Below, piece by piece: positions 1-54,455 of a DNA stretch of 64,000 nucleotides (within the stretch, counting starts at the first letter, position 1; every line of letters begins with the position of its first letter). Where the stretch lies: the NCBI GenBank assembly GCA_964572255.1, contig CAZNEE010000001.1, positions 139,520 to 203,519 of the forward strand, read 5' to 3'. The translations under genes were made by a program, and so were the position numbers. This DNA is from an uncultured Planctomycetia bacterium (lineage in GTDB: Bacteria > Omnitrophota > Gorgyraeia > Tantalellales > Tantalellaceae). The notes beneath the pieces are model-generated. The model was not told the DNA's origin and made no database searches. It saw only the letters and a program-made list of their open reading frames with translations.

Positions 1-1647
1 GAGTATCTTAACCGCGTGCAGGAGGATATACTCGATGATATCGATTCTTTCAAGGAGGAGGAAGAGGCTCCGGCTCAGATCCTGGGATTGGGGGCTAAAA
101 CGCCTAAAAAGGACGTTTTCCTTAAATACAAAGTGAATCTTTTGGTGGATCACAAGTATTCCAAAGGCGCGCCTGTTATAAAAGAGGCTAATCCGAGTTA
201 TTATAATCTGCTCGGCAGGATAGAATATATTTCGCATTTCGGTTCCATGACAACCGATTTTACGATGATCGCTGCCGGCGCTCTTCATAAAGCGAACGGC
301 GGGTATCTTGTCCTGCAGGCCATGGACGTATTGAAGAATTTCATGGCCTGGGACGCGCTGAAGAGGGTGATACGCAACCATGAGATAAAAGTTGAGGATA
401 TAAACGAACAATTCCGTCTGATATCAACTACCAGTTTAAAACCCAAACCGATCCCCTGCGATATAAAAATAATCATGGTGGGGCCGCCCTGGCTTTACCA
501 GCTCCTCTATAGATATGATGAAGATTTTCGCAAGATGTTCAAGATAAAAGCTGATTTTGATGTTGAAATGAACAGAGACACTGAAAAACTCAAAAAATAC
601 GCTGCTTTTATAAAGGTGAGATGCAATGAGGAAGGACTAAGACATTTTGACAGAGAGGCTGTCGCCAGGGTTGTTGAATACGGTTCAAGGCTTGCGGAAG
701 ATAAGGAAAAACTCAGCGCACTTTTTATGTATATCGCCAATATACTGCGTGAAGCCAACTACTGGGCGGGAAAGGATCAAAAAGAATATGTAGGGAAAGA
801 TCATATTGAAAAAGCGATAGAAGAAAAGATATATCGTTCAAATTTGATCGAGGACAAAATACTGGAGCTCATTGAGAAAAACGTCATCATGATAGATACT
901 GAAGGGAGTGTCACCGGACAGGTAAATGGCCTTTCGGTGTTGGATATAGGTGAATATATGTTCGGCAAACCTTCGCGTATCACAGCCAGGACTTATATAG
1001 GCAAAGCAGGCGTAGTTGATATTGAACGGCAGGTCAAAATGGGCGGCAACATACATTCCAAAGGTGTTTTGATCCTTAACGGATATATAGGAGAAAAATT
1101 TGCGCAGGAGACGCCGCTTGCATTGAATGCAAGTATATGTTTCGAGCAATCTTATCAGGGAGTGGAAGGGGATTCGGCATCCAGCACCGAGATGTATTGC
1201 CTCCTGTCATCGCTTGCGGAAGTTCCTATTAAACAATCTATAGCGGTGACCGGTTCTATGAACCAGCACGGGATGGTGCAGCCTGTAGGCGGCATAAATG
1301 AGAAGATCGAAGGATTTTACCAGGTATGTAAGCTTAAAGGGCTTACGGGGGATCAGGGAGTGATCATGCCGTATCTAAATGTAAAACATCTTATGCTGAA
1401 AGATGAAGTTATAGATGCGGTTAAAAAAGGCAAGTTTCACATATGGGCAGTTTCCACGGTGGATGAGGGGATAGAGATACTTACCGGCAAAAAAGCCGGG
1501 AAGAAAAGCCCAAAAGGCAAATATCCTAAAGGGACAATAAACTATCTTGTCGCGGAAAAATTAAAGGAATATTCCGAGAGATTCAGTTCTCAGAAAAAAG
1601 GAAGATCCGGTAAAAAAAAGAAAACCTCCGGGAGAAAAAAGAAGTAG
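1..1647 (+). CDS. Lon-like (peptidase S16 family) ATP-dependent protease, C-terminal ~540 aa; the 5' end lies outside the window
   Basis: The frame is open from base 1. The Lon proteolytic domain shows the catalytic Ser context (TGSMNQHGMVQPVGGINEKIEGF) and a C-terminal Lys-rich tail (KKGRSGKKKKTSGRKKK). No Walker A motif is visible, so the AAA+ part must lie upstream. Confidence 0.7.
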   Translation, partial: EYLNRVQEDILDDIDSFKEEEEAPAQILGLGAKTPKKDVFLKYKVNLLVDHKYSKGAPVIKEANPSYYNLLGRIEYISHFGSMTTDFTMIAAGALHKANGGYLVLQAMDVLKNFMAWDALKRVIRNHEIKVEDINEQFRLISTTSLKPKPIPCDIKIIMVGPPWLYQLLYRYDEDFRKMFKIKADFDVEMNRDTEKLKKYAAFIKVRCNEEGLRHFDREAVARVVEYGSRLAEDKEKLSALFMYIANILREANYWAGKDQKEYVGKDHIEKAIEEKIYRSNLIEDKILELIEKNVIMIDTEGSVTGQVNGLSVLDIGEYMFGKPSRITARTYIGKAGVVDIERQVKMGGNIHSKGVLILNGYIGEKFAQETPLALNASICFEQSYQGVEGDSASSTEMYCLLSSLAEVPIKQSIAVTGSMNQHGMVQPVGGINEKIEGFYQVCKLKGLTGDQGVIMPYLNVKHLMLKDEVIDAVKKGKFHIWAVSTVDEGIEILTGKKAGKKSPKGKYPKGTINYLVAEKLKEYSERFSSQKKGRSGKKKKTSGRKKK

Positions 1648-3285
1648 ATGAACGTTCTTCTTGTTATTGGCTTAATTATGCTGCTCGGGGTGGTGAGCGG
1701 TAAGGTCTTTCAAAAACTTAATCTGCCCCAGGTAATGGGATATATTATAGTAGGCATACTTCTTGGTGAATCCTTTCAGGGAGTGATCAGCTGGGAGTTC
1801 CTTCAATCATTTAGCCCGTTCATCGATCTTGCGCTTGGAGTTATCGGTTTTCTGATAGGGGCGGAACTCAATTTCGACCGCTTCAAAAAATACGGTAAAT
1901 CAATATATACCATTCTTCTGGCCGAGTCTTTGATCACTTTTTTCCTTGTTGCGTTGGTTGCAACATTACTTACCGGTAAAGTATATATGGGGCTCATACT
2001 CGGGGCTTTGGCTTCCGCTACGGCACCGGCCGCTACATATAATGTCATCGGAGAATATAAAGCCCGCGGTCCGCTAACGATGACAACCCTTTCGATCGTT
2101 GCTTTGGATGACGGTGTTGCGCTTATCATTTACGGTTTTGCAAGCGCTTTCGCCAGGACCTTTATTGCGCATGAGAGCTTTTCGGTAATAACAACTATAG
2201 GATATCCTTTATTGGAGATCGCTTTCTCAGCTTTTATCGGCGCTGTTTCAGGTTTTGTGCTTCATAAGATCATACTGCGCGTAAGAGACAGAGAAAGAAT
2301 ACTTCCCATTACGTTCGGAACGATAATTTTTGTGGTCGGGCTTGCAAGGTTTTTTGACGTGGATGCGATCTTCGCGGCTATGATCCTTGGCGCCGTGGTT
2401 TCTACGCTTCAGACATCCGAACATCAGGAAATGTTCGATCTCATTAAACGGTTTAGTGCCCCGATATATGTGCTTTTCTTTGTTCTTGTAGGCGCCAGGC
2501 TTGATGCGAGGATATTTGCGAAAATAGGGGTTATTTCTCTTGCCGTGGCTTATATCATAGCCCGAAGTGTCGGAAAGCTTTCCGGTGCTTATATAGGAGG
2601 CAAAATATCGAAGGCTAAAGAAACCGTGACTAAATATCTTGGATTTTGCCTTTTCGATCAGGCCGGGGTTGCGGTCGGTCTTGCCATAGCTTCTTACAAT
2701 GTATTGAGCAAGATGGGCCCTGAAGCGCAAATGGCGGGCCTGCTCATAATTAACATTATAACCGCGACGACCTTTCTTCTGCAGATCATAGCGCCTCCGA
2801 TGATCAAATACGGAGTCAAGAAAGCCGATGAGATGTATCGTAATGTCACCGAAGAAGACATTATTCAAGAGTATAAGGTAAGAGATGTAATGGAAGAGGA
2901 TTTCTTCTTAATAAGAGAAAATAATAATCTTCATCAAATAATCGATATCATGAAAAAAAGCGACGGGTATATTTTTCCTGTTATAGGGATGGATGAAAAA
3001 TTCATCGGAGTGGTTTCGCTTGGAGAGATAAGAGATACATTTTACGAGGAACAAATGGATCAATTGATCCTGGCTGAAGACATTTACAGGGAAGTTGATA
3101 TTGTTGTTTATGCCGATCAGGAGCTTAAGGATGCAATGGATATATTCAAGGCTAAAAATATAGACTATCTTCCCGTATTGGAGAATAACCGGACAAAAAG
3201 GCTTGTGGGGCAGCTGGAATATAAAAAGATCAAGGAATTTATCAGCAGGGAAGTCATCCTCAGGCAGCAGGAACTCGAAACTTAA
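1648..3285 (+). CDS. Monovalent cation:proton antiporter (CPA/Kef-NhaP type) with C-terminal CBS-domain pair
   Basis: The N-terminal 400 aa are polytopic (MNVLLVIGLIMLLG..., GxxGxxxG-rich helices). The C-terminal soluble region resembles a CBS pair. Its ATG immediately follows the upstream stop (TAGATG), so the two genes are coupled. Confidence 0.8.
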   Translation: MNVLLVIGLIMLLGVVSGKVFQKLNLPQVMGYIIVGILLGESFQGVISWEFLQSFSPFIDLALGVIGFLIGAELNFDRFKKYGKSIYTILLAESLITFFLVALVATLLTGKVYMGLILGALASATAPAATYNVIGEYKARGPLTMTTLSIVALDDGVALIIYGFASAFARTFIAHESFSVITTIGYPLLEIAFSAFIGAVSGFVLHKIILRVRDRERILPITFGTIIFVVGLARFFDVDAIFAAMILGAVVSTLQTSEHQEMFDLIKRFSAPIYVLFFVLVGARLDARIFAKIGVISLAVAYIIARSVGKLSGAYIGGKISKAKETVTKYLGFCLFDQAGVAVGLAIASYNVLSKMGPEAQMAGLLIINIITATTFLLQIIAPPMIKYGVKKADEMYRNVTEEDIIQEYKVRDVMEEDFFLIRENNNLHQIIDIMKKSDGYIFPVIGMDEKFIGVVSLGEIRDTFYEEQMDQLILAEDIYREVDIVVYADQELKDAMDIFKAKNIDYLPVLENNRTKRLVGQLEYKKIKEFISREVILRQQELET

Positions 3286-3336
3286 AAAAATTTATTATTT
3301 TTTACATATCATATCGATGGATATAAATACATAAAT

Positions 3337-3358
3337 ATGTTAACATGTGTAACATGTG
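3337..3358. promoter_or_regulatory. Candidate operator: 10-bp palindrome ATGTTAACAT overlapping a tandem TAACATGTG x2 repeat, upstream of the dnaJ-like/arsR/yacP genes
   Basis: Read directly from the sequence at 3337-3358 (atgttaacatgtgtaacatgtg), 20 nt before the RBS AGGAGGAG of the 3377 gene. Confidence 0.3.
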
Positions 3359-3376
3359 CAATAGGAGGAGAGGTCT

Positions 3377-4030
3377 ATGGCTAAACAAGATTATTATCAG
3401 GTCCTGGGAGTAAAGGAAGATGCCGGCCAGGCCGAAATAAAAAAAGCATACAGAAAACTTGCCCTTAAATATCATCCGGATAAAAACCCGGGGGACAAGA
3501 AGGCCGAAGAAAACTTTAAGCAGGTCTCGGAGGCTTATTATACCCTTGGCGACGAAAAAAGACGTAAAGAGTATGATAACCTGCGAAAAATGGGAGCTTA
3601 TACCGGGGACTTTTCTTCCGATCAGGGATTCGATTTTTCGGAATTTTTAAGGCAATTTTCAGCCGGAGGAGGGGGCAGAGGCGCTTCTACAGGTTCTATT
3701 TTTGACGGCATTTTCGGCGATATTTTCGGGGGGGATCAGCGCGGGGGTAAATACACGTTTTATTACTCCGATGGCGGCGGCATGCGTGAAGGAACTGGAC
3801 AGGGGGTCCAGCAGCTGGATACGGACATGCGAGCATCTCTTCCTATACCCAAAAGACTTGCCCAGAGCGGCGGAGAAGCGAATTTTAAATTATCCGACGG
3901 CAGAAGCATAACTCTTAAAATACCTAAAGGAACAAAAGACGGCCAAAAAATGAGATTAAGAGCCCAGGGCCAGGATTGCCCTTATTGCGGACACAAAGGG
4001 GATCTTATCGTAACGATAAAAATAAAATAA
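3377..4030 (+). CDS. J-domain protein (DnaJ-like; Gly/Phe-rich linker, no CxxCxGxG zinc-finger repeats)
   Basis: The J-domain is present with its HPD motif ([21 protein letters not shown]). It has a G/F-rich region and a strong RBS (aggaggagaggtctATG). Confidence 0.8.
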
Positions 4031-4052
4031 ATTATTTTTAAAGGAGAGGGAA

Positions 4053-4331
4053 ATGACCCGATATGATCTTGTAAGAACATTTAAAGCCCTTGCGGATGAG
4101 ACGAGGCAGGATATTCTGGAGCTATTGGGGGGAAAGGAGATGAATGTCACGGATATATGCGCGGAGGTGAGAATATCACAGCCGACAGTTTCTCATCATC
4201 TCCAGATACTGAAAAATTGCAAACTGGTCGATTCGAGAAAGCAAGGCAAGAACATATTTTATTTCGTGAAAAAGGATATTGTAAATGACGTTTTTGATAA
4301 TGTGCTGCAAAAAATGCATAAAAAAGGATAG
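4053..4331 (+). CDS. ArsR/SmtB-family HTH transcriptional regulator
   Basis: Winged-helix signature ICAEVRISQPTVSHHLQILKNCKLV; the protein is 92 aa. Confidence 0.85.
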   Translation: MTRYDLVRTFKALADETRQDILELLGGKEMNVTDICAEVRISQPTVSHHLQILKNCKLVDSRKQGKNIFYFVKKDIVNDVFDNVLQKMHKKG

Positions 4332-4819: not shown

Positions 4820-5823
4820 AGGATGTAGCTGCAAATATCAGTGATCCCATAAGGGGGATGGTTGATGCGCGAGCCGTGATGGCGCCTATGTCGGGTGTCA
4901 CAGATGTACCTTTTCGTCTTATTATGCGCAAGTTCGGCTGCCGGTTCGCGTTTACCGAGATGATAGACGTGAACGGTATTGTATACAACAACCGCAAAAC
5001 GCTCAGCATGCTTGAACGCCCCGAAAAAGACAGCCCGCTTGGTGTGCAGATCGTCGGGGAGAATAAAGAAAAGATCATCCATGCCGCAAAAGTGTGTGAA
5101 GGAAAAGGTTTTGATCTCATTGATCTCAATGTCGGATGTCCCGCTCCGAAAGTTATAAAAGGCGGTAAAGGTGTGGCGCTTCTTAAGGATTTGAGGAAAC
5201 TTGCGGGCATCGTCCGTAAACTCGTGAAGTCTGTCAAACTGCCCGTTACGGTTAAAATAAGAAGCGGATGGGATAGGAAAAACTTAAATTATCTCGAAGC
5301 GGCAAAGATAATCGAAACGGAAGGCGCGAGCGCGATTTGCATTCATCCCCGTTCGCGCGAACAGCAATATAAAGGTAAGCCGGATCACGATATGATACGT
5401 GAAATTGTCGAGGCCGTGGATATTCCGGTATTTGCGAGCGGGAACATGTTCAAACCGCAAGACATTGAAGAGGTGATCAGCCTTACCGGTTGTGACGGCG
5501 TATTTATTGCAAGAGGAGTATTGGGAAAACCATGGATATTCAGGCAGATAGAGGAATATTCTTCCGGAGAAGAATATTCCTGGGATCCGTCGTTTGATGA
5601 ACTGAAGAGGATTATCATGGAACACGTGTCCTTATCGCTTAAATACTACGAAGAAAGATTAGCTTTTTCCAGGATGTATAAACATATTTGTTGGTACCTG
5701 AAAAAATACAAGAACTTGAATGAGATAATGAAAGAGTATGTCCGCGCAAGGGAATGGGGCAGCTTTCTTATCTTTATGGATAAATTAAGATTGGAAGGAA
5801 ATAGATTGGTATCGGAGGATTGA
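4816..5823 (+). CDS. tRNA-dihydrouridine synthase (Dus family)
   Basis: MAPMSGVTDVPFR, the DLNVGCPAPKV catalytic Cys motif, and a TIM-barrel FMN-binding pattern. The GTG start overlaps the upstream stop; an alternative ATG lies at 4858. Confidence 0.8.
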   Translation: MKDVAANISDPIRGMVDARAVMAPMSGVTDVPFRLIMRKFGCRFAFTEMIDVNGIVYNNRKTLSMLERPEKDSPLGVQIVGENKEKIIHAAKVCEGKGFDLIDLNVGCPAPKVIKGGKGVALLKDLRKLAGIVRKLVKSVKLPVTVKIRSGWDRKNLNYLEAAKIIETEGASAICIHPRSREQQYKGKPDHDMIREIVEAVDIPVFASGNMFKPQDIEEVISLTGCDGVFIARGVLGKPWIFRQIEEYSSGEEYSWDPSFDELKRIIMEHVSLSLKYYEERLAFSRMYKHICWYLKKYKNLNEIMKEYVRAREWGSFLIFMDKLRLEGNRLVSED

Positions 5824-5824
5824 A

Positions 5825-6406
5825 ATGAAAAAGATCATTCTGGCTTCCGTTTCCGAAAGACGATCGCAAATCCTCACTTCATGCGGGGTTAAGCATGTTG
5901 TTATCGGCAGTAATATTGAAGAGCTGAAAAGCGGGTCTGTTTCAGAGGTCGTCCGGGTAAATGCCGAGAAAAAAGCGGAAAAAGCAGTTCAGGATTCCGG
6001 TGAAGCCGTTATTATCGGAGCTGATACTCTTGTCGCGCATGGCGAGGATATTATCGGAAAACCCCAGGACGAAAATGCCGCAAAAGATCTCTTGAAAAGG
6101 TTTTCGGGCAGCGATATCGAGGTGTATACAGGGCTTTGTGTAATAGACACGTCAAGCGGGAAGAAAGCATCGGGAGTTGATATGAGCGAGATAACAGTTG
6201 TTAGCATGACAGAGGAAAAAATCGAAAATTATTTCAAGTTGTTAGCCCCGTATGACAAGGCAGGGGGATTTTCTATAGAAGGCGTGGGCTCGCTTTTATT
6301 CGATAACATTAAGGGATCCTATTTCAACATATTAGGACTTCCCATGATCAAGCTTAACGAACTATTTAAAGAAATTGGATTAAATTTGTTAGAATTTTTA
6401 GCATAA
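5825..6406 (+). CDS. maf: Maf-like nucleoside triphosphate pyrophosphatase (septum formation protein Maf)
   Basis: ILASVSERRSQIL...IGADTLV...GLPMIKL signature; 193 aa. Confidence 0.85.
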   Translation: MKKIILASVSERRSQILTSCGVKHVVIGSNIEELKSGSVSEVVRVNAEKKAEKAVQDSGEAVIIGADTLVAHGEDIIGKPQDENAAKDLLKRFSGSDIEVYTGLCVIDTSSGKKASGVDMSEITVVSMTEEKIENYFKLLAPYDKAGGFSIEGVGSLLFDNIKGSYFNILGLPMIKLNELFKEIGLNLLEFLA

Positions 6407-6420
6407 AAAATCAATAAAAA

Positions 6421-7491
6421 ATGAAAAAACATTATACAATTCCATTTTTTATTCTGCATAAGGGATGCCCGTTCAAGTGCATATTCTGTGATCAGAATAG
6501 TATCACCGGGCAGGATATGATCAAGCCCGAGGATGTGGAAAAGGGTATTGAAGAATATCTTTCAACGATCCCGCCATCAGCGGAAAGGATCGAAGTCGGC
6601 TTTTTCGGCGGGACGTTTACCGGGCTGGATCCGGAACTTCAGAAAGAATTTCTCCGGCCCGTGCAAAAGTATATCCGGAAAGGCATTATCAAAGGCATCA
6701 GATTATCCACGCGTCCTGACTACATAAATAAAGAAACACTTAAGATGCTTAAAGAATATAGTGTGACTTGCATAGAACTTGGAGTGCAGTCCGCCTCAGA
6801 TAAAGTGCTTTTAGCCGCTAAAAGAGGGCATACAGCCGAAGATACGGAACGTGCTTCAGGAATGATACTGAATGAAGGTTTTATTTTGGCCCACCAGATA
6901 ATGCTGGGATTACCCGGAAGCAACAGGGAAGAAGAGTTCCACGCGGCAAAACGGTGCAAAGAATTGGGAGCGAAAGAAGTACGCATCTATCCGGTAATCG
7001 TCATCAAAGACACTGAACTTGCCGATCTTTGGCGGGAAGAAAAATATGAACCGCTTGATGAAGAAGAAGCTCTTTATCGCACTGCTATTATCATGCTCTA
7101 TTTGCAGGCTAATGATATTAAGGTCATACGGTGCGGATTGCACCCTTCTGAAGGGCTCATCGGAGGCAGCGGTTTTCTTGCCGGTCCGTTCCATCCCGCG
7201 TTCAGGCAAAAAGCCGAAAGCTTGATCTATTCGTTCGTGTTAGAGGCATTATTAAGAGAGCAAAGTTTGATAGATCGCATATCTTTTAACCCTGATGATG
7301 AAGGAGCGTTCTTCGGGTTTAAAGGTAAGAACTCCGGATTGATAAAAAGCCTTTTTCGTCCAAGAGAGGTTATTTTAAACAGGGATGTAAATATTCCCAA
7401 AGGAAGTTTGTACGTCTGGAGGAATGGGAAGATAGAAATGTTGGACAGAAAAAGCATAGCTAAGCGATGTAAAATGATTTGCGACTTTTAA
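6421..7491 (+). CDS. Radical SAM domain protein (ELP3-like / coproporphyrinogen-oxidase-like fold)
   Basis: CPFKCIFC (CxxxCxxC) near the N-terminus; 356 aa. Confidence 0.65.
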   Translation: MKKHYTIPFFILHKGCPFKCIFCDQNSITGQDMIKPEDVEKGIEEYLSTIPPSAERIEVGFFGGTFTGLDPELQKEFLRPVQKYIRKGIIKGIRLSTRPDYINKETLKMLKEYSVTCIELGVQSASDKVLLAAKRGHTAEDTERASGMILNEGFILAHQIMLGLPGSNREEEFHAAKRCKELGAKEVRIYPVIVIKDTELADLWREEKYEPLDEEEALYRTAIIMLYLQANDIKVIRCGLHPSEGLIGGSGFLAGPFHPAFRQKAESLIYSFVLEALLREQSLIDRISFNPDDEGAFFGFKGKNSGLIKSLFRPREVILNRDVNIPKGSLYVWRNGKIEMLDRKSIAKRCKMICDF

Positions 7492-22919: not shown

Positions 22920-22945
22920 GGGGACGCCCCACTCGGGGACACCCC
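22920..22945. repeat. GC-rich repeat GGGGACGCCCCACTCGGGGACACCCC, inverted partner of 23289-23314
   Basis: Exact reverse complement of 23289-23314; it sits directly after the metH stop. Confidence 0.7.
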
Positions 22946-23038: not shown

Positions 23039-23251
23039 ATGGCTGAATGTAAAATCAATGCCAATAAAAAAAACTGCAATTGTTCGTATGAACCTTGTTC
23101 GAAAAAAGGTGTATGCTGTGACTGCCTACAATATCATTTAAAAATGGGGCAGTTTCCCGCATGTTTATTCCCGGATGATGTTGAAAAAACATATGACCGC
23201 AGTATTGAACGATTTATAAAGACTTATCAGGAAAGAGGTTCCTGGTTCTAA
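23039..23251 (+). CDS. Small Cys-rich protein (70 aa, 8 Cys; putative metal-binding)
   Basis: [21 protein letters not shown]...; RBS AAAGGAGG 6 nt upstream; bracketed by the GC-rich inverted repeats. Confidence 0.5.
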
Positions 23252-23288
23252 CTGAAAAGGGCCCCGAATGGGGCGTTTCCAAAGGTGT

Positions 23289-23314
23289 GGGGTGTCCCCG
23301 AGTGGGGCGTCCCC
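23289..23314. repeat. GC-rich repeat (reverse orientation) GGGGTGTCCCCGAGTGGGGCGTCCCC, with an adjacent degenerate copy at 23268-23287
   Basis: Reverse complement of 22920-22945; a tandem ...GGGGCGTTTCCAAAGGTG / GGGGCGTCCCCAAAGGTG arrangement is visible. Confidence 0.7.
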
Positions 23315-23322
23315 AAAGGTGG

Positions 23323-25180
23323 TATGAAGAATTATTATGATGTTATAGTGGTTGGTGGGGGGCATGCCGGATGCGAAGCATCGCTTGCATCAAGCAGGAT
23401 AGGTGTGCGCGCACTTCTCATCACCATGAAGAAGGACGCGATCGGTTATACTTCCTGTAATCCCGCGATCGGCGGTATCGGCAAGGGGCAGCTTGTTAAA
23501 GAAATAGATGCGCTGGGCGGCGAGATGGCAAAAGCGGCAGATGCCAGCTGTATCCAGTACCGCATGCTCAATTCTTCCAAAGGGTACGCTGCGCGTTCAA
23601 GCAGGATGCAGATAGACCGTAAACTATACAACAATTACATGAAAGCTTGTCTGGGTAAACAGCCCGGATTAGATATTGTTGAAGATGAAGTCAAAGAGCT
23701 GGTCATTAAGAACAATTCTTGCCAAGGAGTTAAAACCGCCAAGGGAGAGATTTATAATGCCTCCTGCGTGATACTTACTACAGGCACTTACATGAACGGC
23801 ATCATTCATATAGGTCTTGAACATTTCTCAGGAGGGCGTATAGGCGAGGAAGCTTCAAGGGGATTATCAGATGATCTAAGAAGACTCGGATTCAATGTAA
23901 GCAGTTTAAAAACAGGTACTCCAGCAAGAATTGACGGCAGCACAATAGATTTTTCGGTTTGCACCAAGCAGGATGGAGACACTAGGATAATACCTTTCTC
24001 TTTCTCAACAAAAGAAATAACATTACCTCAAAAAAGTTGCTACATAACCAGGACTAATGAAAATACACATCGGATCATTCGTGAAGGATTAGACCATTCG
24101 CCGCTCTATACAGGTAAGATAAAATCCACGGGGGTGCGTTATTGTCCGTCAATTGAGGATAAAATAATAAGATTCCCTCAAAGAGATTCCCATATTGTAT
24201 TTATCGAGCCTGAAGGATTGGATACGGATGAATATTACCCCAATGGTGTATCTACAAGTTTGCCAAAAGACGTGCAGGAACGTATGTTACGCAGCATCAA
24301 GGGGCTAGAGAACGTAAAAATTAACACGCCCGCATATGGCATAGAATATGATTATGTCGATCCGACAGAGCTTTTTTCCACGCTTGAAGCTAAAAAGATA
24401 AGCGGGCTTTTTCTGGCCGGACAGATAAACGGGACGACCGGATATGAAGAAGCCGCTGCTTTAGGGCTAATGGCGGGGATAAATGCCGCCAGAAAAGTAA
24501 AGAAAGAGTCTTCCGTTATTTTGGATAGATCGCAAGGGTACATAGGCGTTTTGATAGATGATCTTGTCACAAAGGGCACAAAAGAGCCTTACAGGATGTT
24601 CACCTCACGCGTTGAATATAGACTTATCATTCGAGAAGACAATGCTGATACGAGACTTTCAAAGATAGGCCGGAAAGTAGGCCTAGTACCTGAAGAGCAA
24701 GTTGAACGTGTGCGGGAGGGGATCCAAAGAGTTCAAAAAGAAAGGCAGCGGCTGGAGAAAGAGTATTTGTATCCTGAAAAGAGAATAAACTCGTTTCTTG
24801 AAGAAAGAGGAGAATCTCCGTTAAGCGGCAAAATAAGTTTGGCTCAGCTCTTAAGAAGGTCCGGCATTTCTTATGACGATATTGTGCGCTTGGAGAAGGA
24901 AGACCGGAAGCTATCATATTATGAAAAAGTGCAGCTTGAAGTCGATATTAAATATTCCGGATATATTGAAAGGGAATCTTCAAGAATAAAAAAGTTTAAA
25001 GATCTTGAAAAAATACGCATACCCGGTAATTTTGATTACTCCGGGCTAAACAGCATTTCAAATGAGATAAAAGAGAAGCTCATGCATTTTAAACCGGCAT
25101 CGCTTGGTCAGGCATCAAGGATCTCAGGCGTAACGCCGCCAGCAATATCGATACTTATGGTAAAATTAAAGAACATTTGA
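23323..25180 (+). CDS. mnmG: tRNA uridine-5-carboxymethylaminomethyl modification enzyme MnmG (GidA)
   Basis: FAD motif [15 protein letters not shown] and the full-length GidA pattern. Start chosen at the ATG with an AAAGGTGG RBS; the track's upstream start at 23285 runs through the repeat. Confidence 0.9.
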
Positions 25181-48249: not shown

Positions 48250-49515
48250 ATGAAAGATGTACTTTGTGTAGTTTTAGGCGGGGGAAGAGGGACCAGGCTC
48301 TATCCTCTTACCAAAGAAAGAGCCAAGCCGGCAGTGCCTTTATTCGGGAAATACAGGCTTATAGATATCCCTGTAAGTAATTGCCTTAATTCTGATTTTA
48401 AAAAAATATATATTCTCACCCAGTTCCGATCCGAATCACTGAATAAACATATTTCCAGGACATACAAGATGGAGCCTTTTTCTAAAGGTTTTATCGAGAT
48501 CATGGCGGCAGAACAGTCATGGGAAAGTCCTGAAGGTATTACCGATTGGTTCCAGGGAACGGCTGATGCCGTGAGAAGGGGCCTTAAGCATTTTAATGAT
48601 CCCGCTATCAAGTATATAATGGTCCTTTCCGGGGATCAGCTCTACAAGATGAATTTTATTGAACTTTTCAGGTATCACCAAGACAGGAAAGCTGAAGTGA
48701 CCGTGGCATGTAATCTTGTAAAAGAGAAAGAGACCTCTCATTTCGGCATAATGGGGATAGACAAGAATACCAGGATCACAAAATTTGTGGAAAAACCGGA
48801 TAACTTAAAAGAAATAGAAGATATTAAGATCAAACAGGGGAAGGAATCTTATTTTTTAGGTTCAATGGGTATTTATCTTTTCAACAAAGATGTTCTCATC
48901 GATCTTCTCAAGGAAGAGAAAAAAGTGGATTTCGGGAAGGAGATCATACCGGACGCAATTAAATCAAGATCAACTCATGCGTATATCTTTGACGGCTATT
49001 GGCGGGACATCGGAACTATCAAAACTTTTTATGAAGAGAATCTTTCCCTGACAGAGCCCGTACCTCCTCTTGACATGTTCGATGAGGAGTGGCAGATATT
49101 CACCAGGCCACGTTACTTGTCACCCGCAAAAGTTGAAAACAGCTGTATAGAAAAAAGTATTATTGCAGAAGGTGCCATTATCCAGTCGTCCAAAATAGAG
49201 CACTCCATAATAGGCCTTCGTTTAAGGGTGGATAATGATGCCGAGGTGAAAGACACGGTCGCCATGGGCTGCGATTACTACCAAACCATGGGTGAGATCG
49301 AAGAAGACATAAAAAACGGAGTTCCTCATTTGGGTATAGGGAAAAAATGCGTTATACATAAAGCTATTTTAGACAAAAATGTCCGTATAGGCGATGATGT
49401 AAGGATCCTTAACAAAAAAGGGATAGAGAATGAGGACGGTTCGTGTTATTACATAAGGGACGGTATAGTTGTTATACCTAAAAATGCCGTTGTACCGTCC
49501 GGTACGGTGATTTAA
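48250..49515 (+). CDS. glgC: Glucose-1-phosphate adenylyltransferase
   Basis: VVLGGGRGTRLYPLTKERAKPAVPLFGKYRLIDIPVSNCLNS and the C-terminal left-handed beta-helix. Confidence 0.9.
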   Translation: MKDVLCVVLGGGRGTRLYPLTKERAKPAVPLFGKYRLIDIPVSNCLNSDFKKIYILTQFRSESLNKHISRTYKMEPFSKGFIEIMAAEQSWESPEGITDWFQGTADAVRRGLKHFNDPAIKYIMVLSGDQLYKMNFIELFRYHQDRKAEVTVACNLVKEKETSHFGIMGIDKNTRITKFVEKPDNLKEIEDIKIKQGKESYFLGSMGIYLFNKDVLIDLLKEEKKVDFGKEIIPDAIKSRSTHAYIFDGYWRDIGTIKTFYEENLSLTEPVPPLDMFDEEWQIFTRPRYLSPAKVENSCIEKSIIAEGAIIQSSKIEHSIIGLRLRVDNDAEVKDTVAMGCDYYQTMGEIEEDIKNGVPHLGIGKKCVIHKAILDKNVRIGDDVRILNKKGIENEDGSCYYIRDGIVVIPKNAVVPSGTVI

Positions 49516-49516
49516 T

Positions 49517-50275
49517 ATGCAGGACACATTTGCGATAACAATTCTTTTCATATTTATTTGCACGCTTTTCGGGGCGTTTATAAAAGGCAGGTCGAAGGAC
49601 AGGTGTTTAAATGATTTTTCCGATTTTCCGGTCACGTTAAAAAGAGAAGACGGAAAGATCGTTTGGGGAAGGTGCAGGATCGAAAACTCCGGCCTGGAAC
49701 TTGTTTATGACAAGCCGCACCTCGATGCGGATGACGGCCACATTGAAAAAAGCTATATCTTATATAAGGCGGAATTCGGTGCTATAAGAGCTATCGCCAG
49801 ATATGTTGATGCACTTTCATCCGAAGAGCTGAAGATCCGCGATAAGGTCCTGACGAGAACAATAGAACCTTCTCTTTATTCTGTTTTCTTAAGAAAAATA
49901 CGCAATATTTTCGGGACTATAAGGGATTCAATAATGGAAGTGGCAAGTCTTTTGCTCGGACGCATGAAAACAGCTCATCCCGGAGCCAAAATTCTTCAAG
50001 GGCAGGACAAATATATATCTCAGATCCAGCAGCAGAGCATCTCTGCAGTCGGGACTTCATATGAGCCGATATTGGAAAGATATATAGGTAAAAAGATGGT
50101 TTTGGATGTTAAAGAAGGGGATCAGAGGAAAGAATGTACCGGGATCCTTAAGGATTACACGATCGAATTCATCGAAATTTTAGATACGGATTTTGCTTGT
50201 GAAGAAGGGCAACTATCTCGGAAAGCTGACCTGGTCGTTCCGCGCAATATTGGAATAGTCAGGCATTCCGGATGA
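49517..50275 (+). CDS. Hypothetical protein with an N-terminal TM anchor
   Basis: 252-aa ORF immediately after glgC (the glgC TAA stop is followed directly by this ATG); no recognisable family. Confidence 0.5.
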   Translation: MQDTFAITILFIFICTLFGAFIKGRSKDRCLNDFSDFPVTLKREDGKIVWGRCRIENSGLELVYDKPHLDADDGHIEKSYILYKAEFGAIRAIARYVDALSSEELKIRDKVLTRTIEPSLYSVFLRKIRNIFGTIRDSIMEVASLLLGRMKTAHPGAKILQGQDKYISQIQQQSISAVGTSYEPILERYIGKKMVLDVKEGDQRKECTGILKDYTIEFIEILDTDFACEEGQLSRKADLVVPRNIGIVRHSG

Positions 50276-50285
50276 TAATATATAG

Positions 50286-50305
50286 GTCTTTGAAAAGTCT
50301 TTGAA
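50286..50305. promoter_or_regulatory. Direct repeat GTCTTTGAA-AA-GTCTTTGAA upstream of the Rrf2 regulator gene (candidate operator)
   Basis: Seen in the sequence. Confidence 0.25.
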
Positions 50306-50376
50306 CTAAAAAAAACCGGATAAACCAAACTGAAATTAGCGGGTTATCTATCGACTTCTTAGTCTGGGAGGATAAA

Positions 50377-50820
50377 ATGAAGGTAAGTTCAAGACTAGAT
50401 TATGCGATGTCCTGTGTGTTGAGGGTTGCGGATCAATATGACAGCAAAAGACCCGTAACTGCGAGAGAGATCTCTAAAAAAGAGAAAATAGCGGCTGAGT
50501 ATGCTGAACAGCTTTTAACAAAGCTGAAAAGGTCCGGAGTGGTCAGGAGTGTAAGAGGCGTCAAAGGCGGGTATATCCTATCCGATTCCCCAAGCAGGAT
50601 AAAAACAACGGATGTAGTAAGGACATTTGATAAGGATATACTTACTTTGGTATGTTACAGGCCGAAAGGAAGAAGAGGCAAGTGCATTCATTACGATGAT
50701 TGCAAGATAAGGTTTTTCTGGTTGGGGCTAAAGGATGACATGGAAACTTATTTTGACCATTATGATCTGGGGGAATTATTGAAAAAGAGAAGGGAAGAAA
50801 AGAACTGGAAAGGGGCATAA
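50377..50820 (+). CDS. Rrf2-family transcriptional regulator (IscR/NsrR-like) with a C-terminal Cys cluster
   Basis: N-terminal HTH ([14 protein letters not shown]...[40 protein letters not shown]); C-terminal Cys residues [14 protein letters not shown]. Confidence 0.85.
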
Positions 50821-50821
50821 T

Positions 50822-50962
50822 ATGAAGAAGTACAGATGTCTTGTTTGCGAATGGGTTTACGATCCTGCCGAGAATAATAATGTTGATTTTAACGATCTTC
50901 CGGAAGACTGGGTTTGTCCGGAATGCGGTGCGGGAAAAGATCAGTTTGTACCTGTAGAATAA
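50822..50962 (+). CDS. Rubredoxin (46 aa)
   Basis: [19 protein letters not shown]...[17 protein letters not shown], i.e. two CxxCG knuckles, with RBS AAAGGGG. Not in the ORF track because it is under 60 aa. Confidence 0.8.
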
Positions 50963-50986
50963 GCGAGAAACTGAAGGAGGATCATA

Positions 50987-51394
50987 ATGACTAAATTAAG
51001 AGAACTATATCGGTGTAACGTATGCGGAAATGTTGTTGAGATAACACATGAAGGGGCACCGTCTCTAGTCTGCTGTAATGAGCCAATGCAAAAGCTGGAA
51101 GCAAAAACGCAGGATGAAGGCCTTGAGAAACATGTTCCGGTTATCGAAAGAATGGATACCTCTCCCACAGGATGCGACTGTAAGGAATGCGGCGTGAAAG
51201 TAAAGGTCGGAAGCGTAGAACATCCGATGGAAGAAAAACATTTCATTAAATTTATAGAGGTTCTGACAAAGGACCAGGTGCTAAGAGCGGAACTTAAACC
51301 GGGGATGAAACCTGAAGCCGCTTTTTGCGTGAAGGAAGAGGATATAGTTGGAGTAAGAGAGTTTTGCAATATTCATATGCTTTGGAAGAAATAA
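50987..51394 (+). CDS. dfx: Desulfoferrodoxin (2Fe superoxide reductase)
   Basis: Desulforedoxin-like centre I (YRCNVCGNVVEI...LVCCNEPM) plus the SOR domain (EKHVPVIER...). Strong RBS GAAGGAGG. Confidence 0.9.
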   Translation: MTKLRELYRCNVCGNVVEITHEGAPSLVCCNEPMQKLEAKTQDEGLEKHVPVIERMDTSPTGCDCKECGVKVKVGSVEHPMEEKHFIKFIEVLTKDQVLRAELKPGMKPEAAFCVKEEDIVGVREFCNIHMLWKK

Positions 51395-51410
51395 CCAGAA
51401 AGGAAATTTT

Positions 51411-51986
51411 ATGCCGGAACTAAAAGGAACGCAAACTGAAAAAAATCTTCTTGCATCTTTTGCGGGAGAATCTCAAGCAAGGAACCGCTACACTTATTTC
51501 GCTTCCGCAGCTAAAAAGGAAGGGTACGAACAGATAGCTGCGATTTTTCTTGAGACCGCGGAGAATGAAAAGGAGCATGGTAAGAGATTTTTTAAGTTTT
51601 TAAAAGGCGGAGATGCTGAAATAACAGCCACTTACCCGGCGGGCGTTATAGGCAAAACCGCCGAAAACCTTAAAGAAGCCGCTGACGGCGAACGGCTTGA
51701 ATGGGGAACTCTTTACAAGGATGCCGCGAAAACCGCGCTTGATGAAGGTTTTGAAGAGATCACGGAACTTTTCAAAAATATAGCCGCGGTTGAAAAAGAA
51801 CACGAAGCGAGATACCGTAAACTATTGGCAAATCTCGAGGGAGGCAGCATATTCAAAAAAGATCAGCCTGTCAAGTGGAGATGCCGCAATTGCGGATACG
51901 TGCATGAAGCTCAAGAAGCCCCCAAAACTTGCCCGGCATGTTTACATCCGCAGTCATATTATGAACTCCTAGTTGAGAATTATTGA
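51411..51986 (+). CDS. rbr: Rubrerythrin
   Basis: Diiron ferritin-like helices (E..H motifs) plus a C-terminal rubredoxin-like domain (CRNCGYVHE...CPAC). Confidence 0.9.
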   Translation: MPELKGTQTEKNLLASFAGESQARNRYTYFASAAKKEGYEQIAAIFLETAENEKEHGKRFFKFLKGGDAEITATYPAGVIGKTAENLKEAADGERLEWGTLYKDAAKTALDEGFEEITELFKNIAAVEKEHEARYRKLLANLEGGSIFKKDQPVKWRCRNCGYVHEAQEAPKTCPACLHPQSYYELLVENY

Positions 51987-51988
51987 TC

Positions 51989-52558
51989 ATGAAGGTTCTT
52001 GGCATAAGCGGAAGTCCCCGAAAAGGCGGCAATTCGGATGTTTTGCTTGAAAAGGCGCTGGAAGGCGCCAGGTCAAGCGGGGCAGAGACAGAGATCATCT
52101 ATTTACGGGATCTGAATTTTTCACCGATCCAAGAAGAAGAATATGAAAAAGTCAATGATGATGGCCTTTCTGTCATTGATGATGATATGCAGCTGGTCTT
52201 TAAAAAGATAGATGAAGCTGGCGTTCTTATCCTGGCCTCGCCTATCTTTTTCGGCAGTCTTAGTTCGCAGGCCAAAATGATGATAGACCGTTTTCAATGC
52301 GTATGGCTGGCCAAAAATATTTTCCATAAAGAGATCTTTACTGAAACAAAGAAGGGGGCATTTATCTCTGTTGAAGCAACGACAAGAGATGATTTTTTCC
52401 AAAGCGCCAAGTCTATTGTAAGGCATTTCTTCGCGACAATAAACATGCATTACGAAGATGAACTGTTCTGCCCGGGGATAGATAAAAAAACCGGTGCGGC
52501 AGAGCATCCTGAATATTTAGAAAAAGCGTTTGAACTGGGCAGGAATATAGTTTCATAA
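51989..52558 (+). CDS. NAD(P)H-dependent FMN reductase / flavodoxin-like oxidoreductase
   Basis: MKVLGISGSPRKGGNSD N-terminus typical of NADPH-dependent FMN reductases and iron-sulfur flavoproteins. Confidence 0.7.
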   Translation: MKVLGISGSPRKGGNSDVLLEKALEGARSSGAETEIIYLRDLNFSPIQEEEYEKVNDDGLSVIDDDMQLVFKKIDEAGVLILASPIFFGSLSSQAKMMIDRFQCVWLAKNIFHKEIFTETKKGAFISVEATTRDDFFQSAKSIVRHFFATINMHYEDELFCPGIDKKTGAAEHPEYLEKAFELGRNIVS

Positions 52559-52588
52559 GAGTTTGAGGGCTGATGAAATGGAGGGAAC

Positions 52589-53089
52589 ATGGGGAAAAGT
52601 TTTTCGGGTTGTGAGATCATCGAGATCGCGATCCAGATAGAGAAGAACGGGATAGATTTTTACAACGGGTTGATCGAAATGTCCAAGCATGATAAAGCCA
52701 AGGAAGTCTTTAAGTATTTGGCCCAGCAGGAAGAAGAGCATATAAGGATCTTTAAGGGAATTTTTGACCCAAAATGCTCATATGAGCCTCAAGGCGCTTA
52801 TCCGGACGAATATTTCGCGTACATGAACGCTCTTGCCAGCGGCTATATCTTCACTAAAGAGAATAAAGGTAAAGAGATCGCCTCCGGAGTAAAAAACGAT
52901 AAAGAAGCGATCGATCTTGGGATCAAGTTTGAAAAAGAGTCTATACTTTTTTATGAAGGGATGAGAAAGATCGTTCCTGATAAGGATCAGCAGCTGCTTG
53001 AGAGAGTTATCAATGAGGAAAAGGAACATCTTAAAAAACTATGCGAACTAAAAGGGGACGTGCCAGTCGGGGACACCCCATGTGCTTGA
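52589..53089 (+). CDS. Ferritin-like diiron protein (rubrerythrin-family, no rubredoxin domain)
   Basis: Two EExH-containing helices (QQEEEHIRIF, NEEKEHLKKL). The C-terminal residues are encoded by the GC-rich repeat. Confidence 0.6.
   Translation: MGKSFSGCEIIEIAIQIEKNGIDFYNGLIEMSKHDKAKEVFKYLAQQEEEHIRIFKGIFDPKCSYEPQGAYPDEYFAYMNALASGYIFTKENKGKEIASGVKNDKEAIDLGIKFEKESILFYEGMRKIVPDKDQQLLERVINEEKEHLKKLCELKGDVPVGDTPCA
53054..53079. repeat. GC-rich repeat GGGGACGTGCCAGTCGGGGACACCCC
   Basis: Same family as 22920-22945; it overlaps the 3' end of the ferritin-like gene. Confidence 0.7.
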
Positions 53090-53143
53090 AATAGATTTAA
53101 AAATATAATTTTTATCTGAAATTGAGAGGGGTGGGAAGGTATA

Positions 53144-53386
53144 ATGAGCAAAAAAGTTTTTATATACAGTACTCCGACATGTCCGTTCTGCAGGAAGACA
53201 AAACAATTCCTACAGGACAATAATATTGAATTTACTGATTATGATGTATCCAGTGACCATGCAAAAGCTGAAGAAATGGTGCAGAAGTCTGGGCAGATGG
53301 GAGTGCCCGTTCTCGATATAGAAGGCGAGATCGTAGTTGGTTTTGATAAGGAAAAAATAGAAAAATTGTTAGATCTTTACGCTTAG
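53144..53386 (+). CDS. Glutaredoxin-like protein (CPFC active site)
   Basis: VFIYSTPTCPFCRKTKQFL...GVPVL..; 80 aa. Confidence 0.8.
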   Translation: MSKKVFIYSTPTCPFCRKTKQFLQDNNIEFTDYDVSSDHAKAEEMVQKSGQMGVPVLDIEGEIVVGFDKEKIEKLLDLYA

Positions 53387-53412
53387 GGGACGTGCCATGG
53401 GGGGGACACCCC
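53386..53412. repeat. GC-rich repeat GGGGACGTGCCATGGGGGGGACACCCC (overlaps the grx stop codon)
   Basis: Same repeat family; it forms an inverted pair with 53483-53508. Confidence 0.7.
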
Positions 53413-53482
53413 GCAAGGTTAAATTAATTCGTTTTTTTGGCATTTTAAGGGATTTTTAAAAATTTGGTTAGTTTTGTGTTGA

Positions 53483-53508
53483 GGGGTGTGCCCCCATGGC
53501 ACGTCCCC
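53483..53508. repeat. GC-rich repeat (reverse orientation) GGGGTGTGCCCCCATGGCACGTCCCC
   Basis: Its reverse complement matches the 53386-53412 copy; about 70 bp of AT-rich spacer lies between them. Confidence 0.7.
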
Positions 53509-53525
53509 GATTGAGCAAGTTTAAT

Positions 53526-54455
53526 ATGGCTAAGATTTACGATCTGATCATAGTCGGCGCAGGGCCGGCAGGAATAACCGCAAGCGTTTATGCCGCTCGC
53601 AAAAGAATGGATTTTATCGTGCTTACGGGAGACATCGGGGGACAGGCGGCCTGGAGCGGTGATATAGAGAATTACACGGGTTACCAGTTCATTACCGGCC
53701 CCGAACTCGCAGCGAAATTTGAAGAACATATGAAAGAATACGGCGTCGAGGTCAAGGAAGGCGAAGAAGTCAAGGAACTTTGGAAAGAGGATGATATTGT
53801 TCATGTCAAGACAGGGCAAGACGAATATCTTTCCCGGACAGCGATAATAGCTTCAGGAAAAAAGTCAAAAGAACTTGAAGTGGCCGGGGAGAAGGAATTC
53901 AAGAATAAAGGCCTTACATATTGCGCAACGTGCGATGGGCCGTTGTTTTCAGACAAGGAAGTGGCCGTTATAGGCGGCGGTAATTCCGCTCTTGATGCCG
54001 TACTGCAGCTTACCAAAATAGCCAAGAAGATCCACATTATAAACAATATACCTGAACTTGGAGGCGATCAGATAGTGAGGAAAAAGGCGGAAGAAAGCGA
54101 TAAAGTGATCGTGCATAATAATTCCGAGGTAACTGCCGTTCTCGGAGAAAAATTTGTCAGTGCCATCAAGATCAAAAAGGACGGGAAAGAAGAGACCATA
54201 TCTGTTCAGGGAGTTTTTGTTGAAATAGGCCTGATACCCAATTCGGATTTTGTCAAAAATCTTAAAAAAAATGATAATAATGAAATAAAGGTTAGTTGTT
54301 CAAACGAGACCAATGTGGCCGGTATTTTCGCCGCAGGTGATGTTACGGATGTTCCCGAAAAACAGATAATCGTAGCTGCCGGGGACGGCGCAAAAGCTGC
54401 ATTGAGTGCGTTCAGGTATATTTCCAGGACTAGTATGGAATCCGTAAATTGGTGA
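53526..54455 (+). CDS. trxB: Thioredoxin-disulfide reductase
   Basis: FAD motif YDLIIVGAGPAG, redox-active CATCDG, and the NADPH motif GGGNSA. An alternative upstream ATG at 53496 lies inside the repeat. Confidence 0.85.
   Translation: MAKIYDLIIVGAGPAGITASVYAARKRMDFIVLTGDIGGQAAWSGDIENYTGYQFITGPELAAKFEEHMKEYGVEVKEGEEVKELWKEDDIVHVKTGQDEYLSRTAIIASGKKSKELEVAGEKEFKNKGLTYCATCDGPLFSDKEVAVIGGGNSALDAVLQLTKIAKKIHIINNIPELGGDQIVRKKAEESDKVIVHNNSEVTAVLGEKFVSAIKIKKDGKEETISVQGVFVEIGLIPNSDFVKNLKKNDNNEIKVSCSNETNVAGIFAAGDVTDVPEKQIIVAAGDGAKAALSAFRYISRTSMESVNW

Follow-up and report, generated by a model that had tools for sequence, protein, structure and literature searches.

In a 64,000-nt stretch of contig CAZNEE010000001.1 (assembly GCA_964572255.1; hereafter the window) from an uncultured bacterium of the Omnitrophota, we characterized a repeat of 26–27 nt that occurs five times in two clusters, one of which surrounds the genes for a ferritin-like protein, glutaredoxin (grx) and thioredoxin reductase (trxB). 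We hold with high confidence that this repeat is the target sequence, of the repetitive extragenic palindromic (REP) type, of a REP-associated tyrosine transposase (RAYT) of the GTAG-less 'TIRYT' kind, and that it is widespread in Candidatus Omnitrophota. The repeat is of the ordinary selfish palindromic REP/REPIN type and is not a control signal of redox genes. Its members form a family, occur in part as inverted doublets, flank the gene of a Y1/HUH transposase and are lineage-specific in their presence.

The five copies were located at exactly the positions given in a preliminary description of the window, and their consensus was GGGGACGTCCCATTTGGGGACACCCC. In the first cluster, copies A (22920–22945, plus strand) and B (23289–23314, minus strand) are identical in sequence (GGGGACGCCCCACTCGGGGACACCCC), inverted relative to each other and bracket a 70-aa DUF6485 gene. 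Copy A lies 3 nt 3' of the methionine synthase stop codon and copy B 5' of the mnmG ribosome-binding site. In the second cluster, copy C (53054–53079, plus strand; GGGGACGTGCCAGTCGGGGACACCCC) is a lone copy within the 3' end of the ferritin-like open reading frame (ORF), while copy D (53386–53412, plus strand; GGGGACGTGCCATGGGGGGGACACCCC, 27 nt with one extra G) and copy E (53483–53508, minus strand; GGGGACGTGCCATGGGGGCACACCCC) are the left and right arms of an inverted doublet of 123 nt, separated by a 70-nt spacer (53413–53482) with 26% G+C. Two inverted units with a short spacer, such as D-spacer-E, constitute a REPIN-like doublet. Copy D shares a single base with the glutaredoxin stop codon TAG, which ends at 53386. 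These relations, namely C at the ferritin-like 3' end, D over the grx stop codon and E as the inverted partner of D, had all been described correctly. Four of the five copies are intergenic. Sequence variants were cluster-specific, with GCCCCACTC in A and B versus GTGCCA in C, D and E, so that neighboring copies are more alike than distant ones.

The occurrence of the repeat was well beyond chance. When sites were scored by 21 conserved positions, six sites in the window reached at least 15 of 21 (five at 17–21 and the sixth at 15), whereas ten shuffles gave 0–2 such sites. Scored more softly over 21 positions, the window gave a single doubtful further copy on the minus strand at 23255–23280 (GGAAACGCCCCATTCGGGGCCCTTTT), directly 3' of the DUF6485 stop codon, which matched 13 of the 21 positions and is within the chance range. 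A position-weight matrix trained on pattern-selected copies was over-fitted and added none.

The motif, in inverted arrangement, flanked a Y1/HUH transposase gene in four of four distinct loci (L011, L025, L028 and L032). At L011, copies at 4256–4281 (plus) and 5056–5081 (minus) bracket an ORF of 224 aa that matched the Pfam family Y1_Tnp (PF01797 fold family) with an E-value of 1.3e-18. The best NCBIfam model for this protein was 'REP-associated tyrosine transposase' (79.5 bits at a cut-off of 80) as against 25.6 bits for IS200, and its sole PDB match, a weak one with an E-value of 0.009, was Escherichia coli TnpA-REP (4ER8). A homology search with the L011 protein returned thousands of relatives, several of which are named Omnitrophota transposases. 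Three of the relatives, P0006, P0007 and P0032 (49–69% identical), were selected for comparison of the flanking DNA, and each had a plus copy 113–152 nt upstream of the start codon and a minus copy at or just after the stop codon. When 40 homologs were aligned, no variation was seen in the HUH histidines or in the catalytic tyrosine (in ARYIERNP), and several of the C-termini extended into the downstream repeat, ending in a GDVPxGDT-like sequence.

No RAYT gene was found within the window. The presumed transposase of this genome is P0032, the product of the gene at L028. The longest contig for both P0032 and P0241, the DUF6485 protein of the window, was 526,890 bp, and both came from the same samples; given this match, the P0032 gene very probably lies on the same 527-kb contig as the window.

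To survey other genomes, a collection of species-representative genomes was scanned with the pattern GGGGACGNNCCAN{3,4}GGGSACACCCC. This yielded 24 loci in 13 other metagenome-assembled genomes (MAGs), nine of which were labelled Candidatus Omnitrophota or Omnitrophica and four otherwise. An inverted second copy was present 7–136 nt away in 11 of the 24 loci, and the copies were single elsewhere. Most of the loci were co-directional intergenic gaps in which the copy lay a few bases from the upstream stop codon. The consensus of these loci was again GGGGACGTCCCATTTGGGGACACCCC, and the 26-mer was nearly identical across genomes ranging from 42 to 65% G+C.

The neighboring genes at these 24 loci bear on a reading put forward in the preliminary description, in which the repeat would serve to control a thiol/oxidative-stress regulon, e.g. 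as an operator to which the neighboring Rrf2 regulator binds. The window copies do lie near the Cys-rich DUF6485 gene, the ferritin-like gene, grx and trxB, with an Rrf2 gene 2.2 kb upstream, but the accompanying statement that all five adjoin redox or thiol genes holds only loosely, as A comes after the gene for methionine synthase and B before mnmG. Elsewhere the copies showed no relation to gene function, the outcome that the preliminary description itself had named as refuting this reading. Their neighbors, assigned by Pfam, included a TonB-dependent receptor, an ABC ATPase, HPF, GAPDH, a GGDEF response regulator, SurA, an FeFe-hydrogenase, fumarase, a radical-SAM enzyme, an M50 protease, RecA and AlaS, UbiD, arginase and Maf, MreB, a PTS EIIA protein, OsmC, an aminotransferase, citrate synthase and an aldehyde dehydrogenase, which are functionally unrelated. 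In addition, two related genomes (L127 and L128) that keep the order rbr-like, grx, trxB and ogg, with an Rrf2 gene in L127, carry no copy in this syntenic redox operon. The copies stand after stop codons rather than at promoters, occur also inside coding sequences and flank the transposase gene in all four loci described above. Against this evidence the proposed regulon motif did not hold up, and we regard an operator function as extremely improbable.

Comparison with relatives suggested that copies of the repeat have been mobile. Toward its C-terminus the ferritin-like protein reads GDVPVGDTP, which is encoded by copy C, and the CA and stop codon that follow come from the flank. The resulting tail GDVPVGDTPCA was absent from all of the 119 ferritin-like homologs compared, most of which end 2–3 residues past a conserved ELK, giving 158 aa versus 166 aa here. 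In two relatives the ferritin-like gene overlaps grx by 14–23 nt, and in the window copy C and an AT-rich stretch of about 54 nt separate the two genes. Likewise, the order metH-DUF6485-mnmG is kept in relatives (DUF6485 84–89% identical) that lack the window repeat. At both intergenic sites these relatives have palindromic repeats of other kinds, and the gaps have therefore been colonized repeatedly. Because the neighbor order is kept in relatives without the repeat, DUF6485 and grx are residents rather than passengers; on the same ground we rejected the idea of a passenger cassette in which inverted copies mobilize these two genes.

Copies were also found inside genes in other genomes. At L005 (3304–3380) a complete inverted doublet lies in frame in a UvrD/PcrA-like helicase gene (ORF 963–4205, minus strand), between motif II (DEYQDT) and motif III (VGDDDQSIY). 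Alignment with PcrA placed 28 residues in the L005 helicase against four in PcrA, i.e. about 24–26 extra residues (GDVPFGDTPQHAAINKSGVPPNGTSP). At L022 a single copy (5979–6004) lies in a receiver-domain loop of an OmpR-type response regulator (ORF 5743–6453; ..LHEMGCPPMGRPPVLILTAKD..), and a second copy was observed just upstream of the same gene. With the lineage-specific tail, the repeat-free syntenic loci and the cognate transposase, the other reading of the preliminary description, a small non-autonomous element at gene boundaries that is drawn into coding sequence, proved correct in substance.

Copies within very long ORFs were seen in one MAG, at L006 (690–784) and L013 (5089–5114). These ORFs of 1262 and 2418 aa share an N-terminal region and are either true giant genes that read through the repeat or fused ORFs.

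The same description had called the doublet MITE-like, after miniature inverted-repeat transposable elements. A classical MITE would have arisen by deletion from an insertion sequence of the DDE type and would show both terminal inverted repeats and duplicated target sites, and the 26-nt inverted ends, short AT-rich interior and multiple copies of the doublet resemble this design. However, no consistent target-site duplication was found in 17 inverted pairs, whose junctions showed 0–2 nt of chance identity; this is what Y1 transposases, but not DDE-type MITEs, would be expected to leave. Moreover, single units are common, the spacers vary from 7 to 136 nt without conserved sequence, and the only gene found between such ends encodes a Y1/HUH transposase. 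We thus consider a DDE-type MITE very unlikely; what stands of the earlier label is the non-autonomous element, which is REP/REPIN-like. Other mobile or repetitive structures were rejected on geometry: integron attC sites and CRISPRs, as there was no GTTRRRY core and no regular array, and an invertible segment, as spacers down to 7–40 nt are too short.

A single 26-nt unit can form an imperfect hairpin (GGGG-AC-GTCCC-ATTTG-GGGAC-A-CCCC), and the consensus was predicted to fold as ((((..(((((.....))))).)))) with −7.8 kcal/mol and a z-score of −2.5. Eight of the nine proposed stem pairs were pairable in 90–100% of 51 copies. Copy E folds well, its G9:C19 pair restoring an inner stem that is mismatched in C and D. 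The 123-nt D-spacer-E doublet was predicted to form one long hairpin, with −35.9 kcal/mol (z −8.4) as DNA and −75.7 kcal/mol (z −8.7) as RNA relative to shuffles. In terms of primary sequence, the unit consists of two GGGGAC-N5 half-units in tandem at a spacing of 15 nt, contains GGGGACAC in every copy, which fits GGGGWSAS, and is free of stop codons in all six frames.

Two further observations concern the extent of the unit. At L017 (7919–7974) there were three tandem 15-nt half-units (GGGGACRCCCC plus AAAT or GAAT) instead of the usual two, which points to an 11-nt near-palindrome with a 15-nt period as the elementary unit. In assembly JAFGRN01 the copies at L010, L014, L019 and L023 share a conserved 3' flank (TACGATATTTTTGCC), and the repeated unit in that genome is therefore longer than 26 nt.

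The stability of the D-E stem in RNA leads to a further alternative, in which the copies are mainly structures selected by the host, such as terminators, mRNA stabilizers or processing sites, and the link to the transposase is incidental or ancestral. It would agree with the position of copies a few nucleotides from stop codons in many loci, with the other GC-rich palindromes at the same intergenic sites in relatives and with the near identity of the 26-mer in genomes of very different base composition. On the other hand, a structural role needs no fixed sequence, and a selfish element accounts better for the copies in ORFs and for those around the transposase gene. A terminator scan of both clusters gave no terminator-like site at any copy, and the sequences 3' of copy E (GATTGAGCAAG) and copy B (AAAGGTGG) have no U-tract as in an intrinsic terminator. 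Rfam gave no match at gathering score across the whole window, and a promoter scan found none in the D-E spacer. Host selection as the main cause of the copies was accordingly judged unlikely.

Clade-wide conservation, inverted pairs downstream of genes and tolerated copies in coding regions are also features of DNA uptake sequences for natural transformation, such as the Neisseria DUS and the Haemophilus USS, which likewise occur as inverted pairs after genes. Known uptake sequences occur roughly once per kb, whereas the density here is about one per 13 kb. The motif is also 26 nt long and is repeatedly and specifically linked to a transposase gene. There is hence very little to recommend an uptake signal, which we rank as low as the operator.

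For a REP-type target of a RAYT, the behavior of RAYT and IS200/IS605 enzymes (PMC3116915, PMC3479197 and PMC5581495) suggests a mechanism. The transposase would bind and cut the folded single-stranded repeat and would spread copies in trans without target-site duplication. Copies would survive mainly where they do least harm, namely in the short gaps that follow a stop codon or precede a ribosome-binding site. Those landing in genes or at their edges can be read through, as the unit has no stop codon in any frame; the ferritin-like protein thereby gains a new 11-residue tail, and gene calls of trxB and mnmG gain probably spurious N-terminal extensions.

Several points weigh against this interpretation. 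The GTAG tetranucleotide, the tag of classical REPs, was absent in and beside the consensus, and the family was therefore placed with the GTAG-less TIRYT type rather than with classical GTAG REPs. Only five copies were counted in the 64 kb of the window, and the part of this genome that was read comprised the window plus about 20 kb. The NCBIfam model REP_Tyr_transpos was the best for all five of the proteins tested, at 63–82 bits, but only P0007 exceeded the cut-off of 80, and P0032, the presumed transposase of the window genome, scored 68 bits. The placement of its gene relies on the matching contig size and samples and not on a reading of the contig. As for insertion, strain-level contigs 99.3–100% identical to the window all carried the copies, with no polymorphism between filled and empty sites, and the 'empty' sites come from relatives that are only about 60–89% identical in the neighboring protein. 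The hairpins of copies C and D were no better than those of shuffles, so the hairpin potential of single copies in the window is weak, and covariation could not be demonstrated because most stem positions are invariant.

A ferritin-like variant with 97% identity (P0121, locus L046) was tried as an empty site and discarded as uninformative, since it has a different junction or an assembly break. The L046 contig matches the window at 48480–52968 with 99.8% identity; past 52968, within the ferritin-like gene, it switches abruptly to an unrelated ORF, which reflects either structural variation or a chimeric assembly.

To place the repeat in a wider family, metagenomes were scanned with a profile of the transposase, which returned 80 loci, mostly of more distant relatives. 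The closest of these carry variant repeats, e.g. GACGTCCTATTTAG-GACACCCT, and the more distant ones other inverted repeats, many of them built on GGGGACAG or GGGGTCAG. Flanking inverted repeats detected de novo with a score of at least 14 were present in 23 of 70 loci compared with none of 70 shuffled controls, and many had GGGGACAG/GGGGTCAG cores. As the metagenome loci carry other repeat dialects, they did not enlarge the exact-motif sample. A more far-reaching possibility, which we consider improbable though somewhat less so than a mainly structural role, is that one REP dialect and its transposase have been maintained nearly unchanged across much of Omnitrophota (about 42–65% G+C) as an unusually old, vertically inherited REPIN-RAYT partnership, and that boundary copies have been adopted by the host. 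The 26-bp grx-trxB stem and the stop-codon-overlapping copies would then tune expression of an oxidative-stress operon, and the ferritin-like tail would be functional.

The four genes described next lie on the plus strand. The ferritin-like gene (52589–53089; rubrerythrin/ferritin-like, 166 aa, Pfam PF02915) takes its last codons from copy C and the flank. It is followed by grx (53144–53386), a resident in the order rbr-like, grx and trxB kept in relatives, and by trxB, whose probable true start gives a gene at 53526–54455 encoding 309 aa compared with 303–305 aa in relatives. The Cys-rich DUF6485 gene between A and B, also a resident, lies at 23039–23251. The upstream ATG of the longer trxB ORF, at 53496, falls inside copy E, as had been pointed out earlier, and the upstream GTG of the long mnmG ORF falls next to or inside copy B. 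Public gene calls include these segments (53496–53525 and 23285–23323) and give 319 aa for trxB and 631 aa for mnmG. Because the relatives have 303–305 and 591–611 aa, respectively, the N-terminal extensions probably result from misannotation.

To judge from REPs in other bacteria, side effects of the copies on flanking genes are plausible; the RNA stem of 26 bp between grx and trxB, for instance, might form a barrier or be a site of processing. The best promoter-like match of the region (53116–53145; CTGAAA-18-TATAAT, 10 of 12 positions) falls within the AT-rich segment that follows copy C and precedes grx, a segment missing from the relatives in which the ferritin-like gene overlaps grx. In one relative (L128, 4713–4847) the grx-trxB gap holds an unrelated GC-rich hairpin, GGGGCGGGGTTTCCCCGCCC, and this gap may carry a stem-loop of whatever origin in several lineages. 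The gaps flanking DUF6485 look like hot spots for palindromic repeats. At L131 (3740–4000 and 4214–4485), and also at L132, a palindromic element of about 90 nt (GGGGGTGTATTCCGTGCTCAGACAGTCCG...CACACCCCCGG) occurs in direct orientation on both sides of the DUF6485 gene, and L129 has further palindromes at the same two sites, one pair of which brackets a 117-aa ORF.

These results explain a conspicuous repeat without regulation and remove a false regulon lead. They also flag annotation artefacts, namely trxB and mnmG starts placed in repeats, and a ferritin-like protein and several transposases extended by repeat-encoded residues. The known range of REP/REPIN-RAYT systems is extended to an uncultivated phylum whose cells are very small and whose genomes are compact. 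In this phylum the motif could be used to mark lineages during binning and to examine how such elements persist over long periods. The finding opens no new kind of biology. A literature search with the repeat sequence gave only unrelated primer matches, and no paper linking RAYT or REPIN with Omnitrophota was found in the literature collection searched.

Among known systems, the REP/REPIN-RAYT systems of Pseudomonas fluorescens and E. coli (PMC3116915; 4ER8, PMC3479197) likewise comprise short imperfect palindromes mostly outside genes, inverted doublets whose spacers allow long hairpins, a repeat-flanked transposase gene and no target duplication. The doublet size is also close, with 16-mers of the GI REPINs 71 bp apart (Bertels and Rainey 2011, PMC3116915) versus the 70-nt spacer here. 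The Omnitrophota repeat differs in having no GTAG, in the weak similarity of its transposase to E. coli TnpA-REP (E-value 0.009), in an apparently lower copy number and in that its mobility is inferred. In-frame copies read through as 9–30 extra residues are shared with Rickettsia palindromic elements (RPEs) and other intragenic REPs (PMC3733652), as are targets among repair and replication genes, here the UvrD-like helicase. RPE and CGTC repeats (PMC3733652), however, have no known dedicated transposase, whereas the Omnitrophota family has one, and most Omnitrophota copies lie outside genes. With IS200/IS605 the repeat has in common the Y1/HUH fold family (PF01797), the lack of target duplication and, presumably, the recognition of single-strand hairpins. 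It is set apart by inverted-repeat ends in place of the asymmetric left and right ends of IS200/IS605 and by the multiplication of short repeats and not of the gene, and the NCBIfam IS200 model scored only 20–26 bits on the five proteins.

Classical GTAG-tagged REPs flanking RAYT genes were distinguished by Di Nocera et al. (2013, PMC3733652) from RAYT-like 'TIRYTs', which are flanked by GTAG-less terminal inverted repeats; these repeats share GGGGWSAS and in some genomes form moderately abundant families of single or dimeric units. The Omnitrophota system resembles these TIRYTs or 'TIRtrons' in its Y1/HUH gene flanked at fixed distances by inverted repeats with GGGGACAC and in its probably moderately abundant family of single copies and inverted dimers without GTAG. 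It departs from them in that Omnitrophota lies outside the phyla surveyed in that study, in a unit built of two GGGGAC-N5 half-units in tandem (three at L017) and in a repeat that is nearly identical across genomes of 42–65% G+C. In sum, the repeat is of the REP/REPIN-RAYT kind, which was already known and is here newly placed in Omnitrophota.

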